Source: Escherichia coli (GTDB taxonomy: Bacteria > Pseudomonadota > Gammaproteobacteria > Enterobacterales > Enterobacteriaceae). Taken from it: a stretch of 64,000 nt of DNA. The stretch lies in the NCBI RefSeq assembly GCF_044324875.1, contig NZ_CP172185.1. One strand, 5' to 3'. A model generated the notes under the pieces. It made no database searches. It was not told the origin of the DNA and was given only the letters and a program-made list of their open reading frames with translations. A program made the translations under genes and the position numbers. Position 1 is the first letter of the stretch, and the number at the start of each line of letters is the position of its first letter. This document shows positions 36,855-37,171 of the stretch, one piece after another.

Positions 36855-37171
36855 AAAAACATTTTTTTCTATAAAAAACATTAAAATTACTGATTTAGAT
36901 CAATGTGTGGCGTCAATCTACACATAAAGAGGTAGATTTGTCTTCTTTTTAATCTCTGGCGTATAAAGCCAAAATGTAAATACCAATCAAAATTATATTC
37001 TGAATTAAAATAAACACGCAGGTTTTTTACCTGCGTTTTGTGCTATTTATAGTTAATTAAATTGATGTTGTCAAAATGGGTCATTTTGTAAACCTGTGCC
37101 TCAAGGTTTGTCTCCCCCCGGTGTGCAAAGCAAAAGGAAATTGGGAAAGGGGATAACAGGAAATTGATTGC
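36855..37171. promoter_or_regulatory. Candidate invertible promoter switch (ipuS-like) between recombinase and LuxR-regulator genes
   Basis: ~320-bp AT-rich non-coding segment placed exactly where fimS-type switches sit (recombinase - switch - regulated operon); contains palindromes and a hairpin; flanking inverted repeats could not be fixed unambiguously by eye. Confidence 0.35.
37015..37040. terminator. Terminator-like hairpin inside the putative switch region
   Basis: acgcagg-tttttt-acctgcgt stem-loop followed by tttg; also T/A-rich on the other strand. Confidence 0.45.

Follow-up and report, generated by a model that had tools for sequence, protein, structure and literature searches.

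Where a gene for a fim-type recombinase stands directly upstream of genes for a LuxR-type regulator and a giant autotransporter, the question arises whether the DNA between them is an invertible promoter and, if so, where it begins, where it ends and which way it faces. Such a locus is present in the window, by which we mean the whole stretch of 64,000 nucleotides from Escherichia coli contig NZ_CP172185.1 that was analysed. A first-pass annotation, made from the letters alone, had proposed a phase-variable promoter switch there and had named a switch of this kind, ipuS, from uropathogenic E. coli, without placing its inverted repeats confidently. With a probability of about 93%, the region 36809–37083 corresponds to ipuS, which is the third invertible promoter of the fim type in E. 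coli, and stands in OFF orientation. It is an already published switch and nothing new in kind; the biology of ipuS being established, the result amounts to recognising the known element in a further strain.

The genes in this part of the window are arranged in the order dsdX-dsdC-ipuB-ipuA-ipuR-upaE, which is identical to that in strain CFT073:

32008–33345, minus strand: dsdX, 445-aa transporter
33557–34510, plus strand: dsdC, LysR-type regulator
34907–35476, minus strand: ipuB, tyrosine-type DNA invertase of 189 aa (open reading frame; RefSeq name ipuB)
36225–36854, plus strand: ipuA, tyrosine-type DNA invertase, 209 aa in its full-length, OFF-state form (RefSeq name ipuA)
37172–37792, plus strand: ipuR, 206-aa regulator with a C-terminal GerE/LuxR-type helix-turn-helix (PF00196 GerE), gene 1 of the switched operon (PMC6083910)
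37817–45730, plus strand: upaE, 2,637-aa autotransporter adhesin, gene 2 of the switched operon (RefSeq name)

The two fim-type recombinase genes, the LuxR-type gene and the giant autotransporter gene that the first-pass annotation had described are therefore all in place. RefSeq labels the products at the locus "tyrosine-type DNA invertase IpuA", helix-turn-helix transcriptional regulator and "phase-variable autotransporter adhesin UpaE", and its names ipuB, ipuA and UpaE bear out the link to ipuS. The NCBIfam model NF007370 ("tyrosine-type DNA invertase") matched the ipuA product with 251.2 bits, over the cut-off of 221, and the ipuB product with 204.9 bits, under it. The upaE product matched the autotransporter barrel model TIGR01414 with 398 bits and carries ESPR, AC_1 and Autotransporter domains. 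Family matches of IpuR were confined to residues 118–199 (the GerE/LuxR helix-turn-helix, i.e. the C-terminal 60–80 residues), and its N-terminal ~130 residues had no NCBIfam or precomputed Pfam match, autoinducer-binding domains included. A megablast search with positions 36225–37900 as query found the ipuA-ipuS-ipuR-upaE locus in 236 of 5,426 complete E. coli genomes, with an identity of at least 99% in 226 and of 95–99% in 10.

The G+C content was 31–38% across 34–38 kb of the window versus 46–49% in the adjoining dsd genes, which fits a horizontally acquired island. Rfam, run on the whole window, gave no match in the switch region. Downstream of upaE, a C4 antisense RNA, the isrK sRNA and a tRNA-Arg(CCT) were located at 58951–59145 and 62080–62154, and in the closest complete genome upaE was followed by torI and phage-type genes. 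From this neighbourhood, the ipu-upaE island appears to abut a KplE1-like prophage integrated at argW.

The element named ipuS was found as the third invertible element of strain CFT073 (Battaglioli et al. 2018, mBio, PMC6083910), with a published size of "260-bp" and 7-bp repeats. According to that paper (PMC6083910), IpuA is full length in OFF, whereas in ON it loses 11 C-terminal residues and its new last residue is changed; this terminal change is given as K-L in the main text and as K-to-F in the legend of Fig. 1. The published promoter has −35 and −10 hexamers that each agree with the consensus at 4 of 6 positions, and the orientation assay is a PCR followed by PacI digestion, giving fragments of 186 and 1,103 bp in OFF and of 407 and 882 bp in ON (PMC6083910). 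The experimental basis consists of the inversion itself, the 7-bp repeats, which were confirmed by sequencing (10.1101/494401), 5′ RACE and a measured ~1600-fold induction of ipuR (PMC6083910; bioRxiv 10.1101/494401). It was also reported that ipuS can be flipped by all five Fim-type recombinases, and that a genome-wide survey for structural variants, made in CFT073 with each of the five overexpressed, revealed no invertible element beyond fimS, hyxS and ipuS (10.1101/494401).

Because the repeat sequences are absent from the published text, the breakpoints in the window were derived from the published PacI fragment sizes and the IpuA truncation. The features so defined are as follows:

36809–37083: ipuS invertible element, 275 bp with both cores and 261 bp between them, in OFF orientation in the window
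36803–36821: distal recombination site (IRL), ACATTT-TGACCCA-AAATGT, with the core at 36809–36815 between perfectly inverted 6-nt arms, inside ipuA
37071–37089: proximal recombination site (IRR), TCAAAA-TGGGTCA-TTTTGT, with the core at 37077–37083
37053–37060: PacI site (TTAATTAA), the off-centre marker of the published orientation assay

The published primers were located at 34313–34332 (forward) and 37222–37243 (reverse), with 1 mismatch each, and the PacI site is the sole one in 34000–38000. In the window as given, the fragment between the PacI cut and the reverse primer measures 186 bp, the size published for OFF, so the window has this orientation. Upon in-silico inversion of 36809–37083, this fragment became 407 bp, equal to the published ON size, and IpuA was shortened from 209 to 198 aa, its end changing from ...DPK to ...DPF (HFDPF) with K198 replaced by F. 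IRL spans ipuA codons 193–199, and its core TGACCCA corresponds to codons 195–197. Since each site is nearly palindromic, three repeat pairs are possible near the 11th-last ipuA codon. The two neighbouring registers, CATTTTGAC/GTCAAAATG and CAAAATG/CATTTTG, which arise from the palindromic flanks (registers 36804/37078 and 36814/37088), gave PacI fragments of 417 and 397 bp versus the published 407 bp, together with wrong IpuA C-termini, and were rejected. Thus, TGACCCA/TGGGTCA is the only register that gives both the 407-bp fragment and the published truncation, and it predicts the junctions ACATTTTGACCCATTTTGAC and TTTACATTTTGGGTCATTTTG for the flipped element. The count between the cores is 261 bp here versus 260 bp as published, and the K-to-F of the figure legend, not the K-L of the text, matches both our reconstruction and the natural ON proteins described below.

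With an asymmetric 7-bp core and inverted A/T-rich arms, the ipuS sites look like classic tyrosine-recombinase sites. Flipping swaps the inner arms, so that the ON sites are hybrids of the OFF sites. For fimS, comparable arm differences underlie directional bias (PMC6083910, discussion); by analogy, the hybrid sites may confer such a bias on ipuS as well.

In an alignment with ipuS of strain CFT073, a comparison which the first-pass annotation had itself suggested, both recombination sites, with their cores at 36809–36815 and 37077–37083, were identical. Over 401 aligned bp (36780–37180) there were 7 substitutions and no indels, and 6 of these single-base differences fall inside the 275-bp element. 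The CFT073 element is the same one by its position between ipuA and ipuR, by the distal repeat lying inside ipuA and by the genes downstream; the 7-bp repeats, flanking arms, palindrome, terminator stem and PacI site are identical, and flipping truncates IpuA in the same way. The two IpuA proteins differ at 2 residues (I93L, R187I).

These coordinates also correct the extent proposed earlier. The interval 36855–37171 does overlap the switch, but the real start is 46 bp upstream of it, inside ipuA, and the real end is 88 bp before the end of the interval. The short repeats suggested as candidates, CAATCAA (36984–36990)/TTGATTG (37164–37170) and ATCAAT (36899–36904)/ATTGAT (37163–37168), are present in the sequence, and if either pair bounded the switch, the element would be confined to non-coding DNA ahead of ipuR. 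We give this arrangement practically no credence: perfect inverted 7-mer pairs in 36855–37171 numbered 9 versus 7.6 ± 4.2 in dinucleotide shuffles, i.e. chance level, the right arms (37163–37170) overlap the ribosome-binding region of ipuR, and boundaries of this kind would keep IpuA full length in both states, contrary to the published 11-aa truncation (PMC6083910). In addition, natural flipped assemblies break at 36809–36815 and 37077–37083 and not at these repeats.

Such assemblies were found by searching public data for the IpuA predicted for the flipped element at 36809–37083. The exact predicted 198-aa ON protein was present both for the window allele and for the CFT073 allele (e.g. EFE1160548.1, HBI7608244.1), and the contigs read with these two proteins numbered 15 and 6, the 15 carrying the window's allele (I93, R187). 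The two full-length forms of IpuA were each on at least 1,000 contigs. Four switch-spanning contigs (L003, L004, L005 and L012) were flipped with both junctions exactly as predicted; they had 1–11 differences in 501 positions from the synthetic ON sequence and 181–188 in 501 from OFF. One more (L009) was also counted among the ON contigs with exact junctions. The RefSeq names, the CFT073 match and these flipped assemblies together bear out a fim-type invertible promoter between a recombinase gene and a LuxR/autotransporter operon; with the published assay numbers and the natural flipped assemblies, the locus is identified as ipuS, its breakpoints are exact and the window is in OFF. The flipped state can thus be recovered from public assemblies by look-up of the predicted truncated IpuA.

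When the synthetic ON sequence was used as query against the 236 complete genomes, no ON assembly was detected and all were OFF. OFF is the majority state in sequenced cultures, and ON appears to be rare in cultured isolates. It was also noticed that four contigs (L006, L010, L014 and L017) stop, and a scaffold gap in another (L016) starts, within ~30 nt of IRL; breaks at this place are what short-read assembly of a culture with both orientations present would typically produce. One might read the uniform OFF assembly of 236 of 236 complete genomes, together with the ratio of ~21 ON-form contigs to at least 2,000 with full-length IpuA, as the mark of an element that has the ancestry of ipuS but in this strain is locked in OFF for practical purposes, a silent relic without a meaningful switching rate. 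This is improbable in our judgement, as ipuA and ipuB are intact, both recombination sites are identical to those of CFT073, the ON form of the window's own IpuA allele is on 15 public contigs, and a consensus assembly gives the majority orientation only.

Some variants encountered in the search differ from both states of ipuS. A 195-aa IpuA (P0007, WP_137485159.1) was present on 9 contigs. It was considered as a third inversion state and rejected, because L015 and L018, the two contigs with sequence across the site, were in OFF orientation with an extra T instead. The extra T lies in the T-run left of the distal core (window equivalent 36806–36809), where it shifts the ipuA frame and alters the spacing of the outer arm; the remaining two examples stopped at IRL, either at a scaffold gap or at the end of the contig. 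In another contig (L013, Logan SRR34861436, 1417–1720), a single observation, ipuS was ON with a 156-bp deletion between the 12-bp direct repeats CCAAAATGTAAA, whose window equivalents are 36813–36824 and 36969–36980 and one of which forms the inner arm of IRL. With the deletion the candidate promoter is lost, and both recombination sites are kept; the contig may represent a true variant or an error of assembly. A regulator/UpaE-like pair in E. coli SC422 (L002, NZ_LR778143.1, 3512–12282) was set aside as evidence on conservation of the switch, since it is without ipuA or a switch: the nucleotide identity of 73–78% is limited to portions of ipuR and upaE, remnants of IS3 and IS66 lie upstream, ipuB is likewise missing, and the adhesin gene is frameshifted.

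The other place at which the first-pass annotation had thought the switch might lie is the AT-rich spacer of 748 bp that separates ipuB from the divergently oriented ipuA (35477–36224). An additional or alternative invertible element there would have a candidate boundary in an inverted repeat of 25 nt with 80% complementarity (35622–35646/36124–36148), which flanks 477 bp and has a mismatched centre between two perfectly matching blocks of 9 nt. However, 4% of shuffles contained a repeat as good or better, and the CFT073 left arm carries four substitutions, of which three break matches. In each of the 236 genomes the spacer matched one place at ≥80% coverage with no second place on the opposite strand, and in 12 genomes among the matches listed it aligned as single collinear pieces at 100% coverage; no inverted variant was found in the 236 genomes. 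The genome-wide survey of CFT073, with nothing beyond fimS, hyxS and ipuS (10.1101/494401), points the same way, and we regard an element in the spacer as very improbable.

A switch at 36809–37083 should carry a promoter that faces ipuR only after flipping. The in-silico ON sequence was scanned for hexamer pairs with at least 4 of 6 matches each, and the features relevant to transcription are the following:

36843–36875, minus strand: candidate switch promoter, TTTATA-16-TATACG or TAGAAA-17-GAGAAT, each with 4/6 and 4/6 matches
36850–36859 and 36864–36873: palindrome TATAGAAAAA/TTTTTCTATA at the ipuA stop codon, 10-nt arms with 100% complementarity and a 4-nt loop
37016–37036: putative two-way intrinsic terminator inside ipuS, ACGCAGGT and ACCTGCGT separated by 5 nt, an 8-bp GC-rich stem with a 5-nt loop and T-runs on both strands
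37046–37074, minus strand: second promoter-like site, TTGACA-17-TATAAA, 11/12 matches, its −35 overlapping the inner arm of IRR

The scan gave two candidates that would start transcription inside the full-length ipuA coding part and have the right position and polarity, facing away from ipuR in OFF and toward it in ON, both of them weak (8/12 each); a separate consensus promoter scan did not have these two 4/6 + 4/6 hexamer pairs among its listed sites. The −35 and −10 hexamers of both candidates overlap the 10-nt palindrome at the ipuA stop, which thus probably contains the core of the promoter; the hexamers assigned here are provisional, being read from the sequence. The palindrome at the recombinase stop and the strong hairpin were both described in the first-pass annotation and exist at 36850–36873 and 37016–37036. 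As RNA, the palindrome folds with −6.7 kcal/mol (z = −5.8), and the hairpin with −14.8 and −13.1 kcal/mol on the two strands (z = −4.7 and −3.6); the terminator scan gave 2 sites versus 0.3 expected from shuffles. As the putative terminator is on the side of the element away from the promoter, it separates ipuA from the promoter whichever way the element faces, and it would stop ipuA transcripts from entering ipuR.

The second promoter-like site points in the same direction as the switch promoter, with a predicted start immediately next to the terminator stem. Position 37049 is A in the window and G in CFT073, and both alleles are among the public ON assemblies. The A strengthens two promoter-like hexamers relative to CFT073: on the minus strand it changes TACAAA to TATAAA in TTGACA-17-TATAAA (11/12), and on the plus strand TGTAGT to TATAGT in TTTACC-16-TATAGT (37026–37053), which faces ipuR in OFF. 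Taken as sequence, these sites raise the possibility, which we consider unlikely, that ipuS in some lineages has more than two functional states or outputs. If so, the strength of ON or the leakiness of OFF could differ between the 37049 alleles, and a deletion of the 156-bp type seen in contig L013 would be a switch that flips without any output.

In the mechanism that best accounts for the locus, tyrosine recombinases would exchange strands within the identical 7-bp cores TGACCCA/TGGGTCA, and the 261 bp between them would be flipped. The enzymes would be the adjacent IpuA and IpuB, with FimE, FimX and, weakly, FimB supplied from elsewhere in the genome. A weak sigma-70-type promoter is placed beside the distal repeat, where it would overlap the palindrome at the stop of ipuA; in OFF it would read antisense into the 3′ end of ipuA, whereas in ON it would come to lie ~120 nt upstream of ipuR and drive ipuR-upaE, with the UpaE adhesin appearing on the cell surface. 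The same flip replaces the last 12 ipuA codons and gives the 198-aa IpuA ending in ...HFDPF, which is reported to be still active. With the two-way terminator between ipuA and the promoter in both orientations, read-through from ipuA would be unable to switch the operon on. Recombinase specificity, the presence of a promoter and ON/OFF expression rest here on the literature (PMC6083910; 10.1101/494401).

Like ipuS, fimS, which is flipped by FimB and FimE, is bounded by short inverted repeats, depends on tyrosine recombinases from the same family and has an internal promoter and an adjacent recombinase gene, and some recombinases act on both elements (PMC6083910; 10.1101/494401). The two differ in that fimS has 9-bp repeats, consists of non-coding DNA and drives fimbrial genes (PMC6083910), whereas ipuS has 7-bp repeats, overlaps a recombinase gene so that the flip alters the C-terminus of the enzyme, and drives a regulator and an autotransporter.

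A LuxR-like regulator, hyxR, is also what hyxS regulates. No autotransporter lies downstream of hyxS, in which it differs from ipuS. Both are fim-type promoter inversions beside a recombinase gene and in a pathogenicity island, but the repeats of hyxS are 16 bp long, and FimX alone flips it (PMC6083910).

What the present analysis adds to the published switch is its base-exact boundaries in the window and the observation that complete genomes are uniformly assembled in OFF. The element so delimited controls the phase-variable display of the UpaE adhesin and belongs to a network of three switches with five shared recombinases in extraintestinal pathogenic E. coli.
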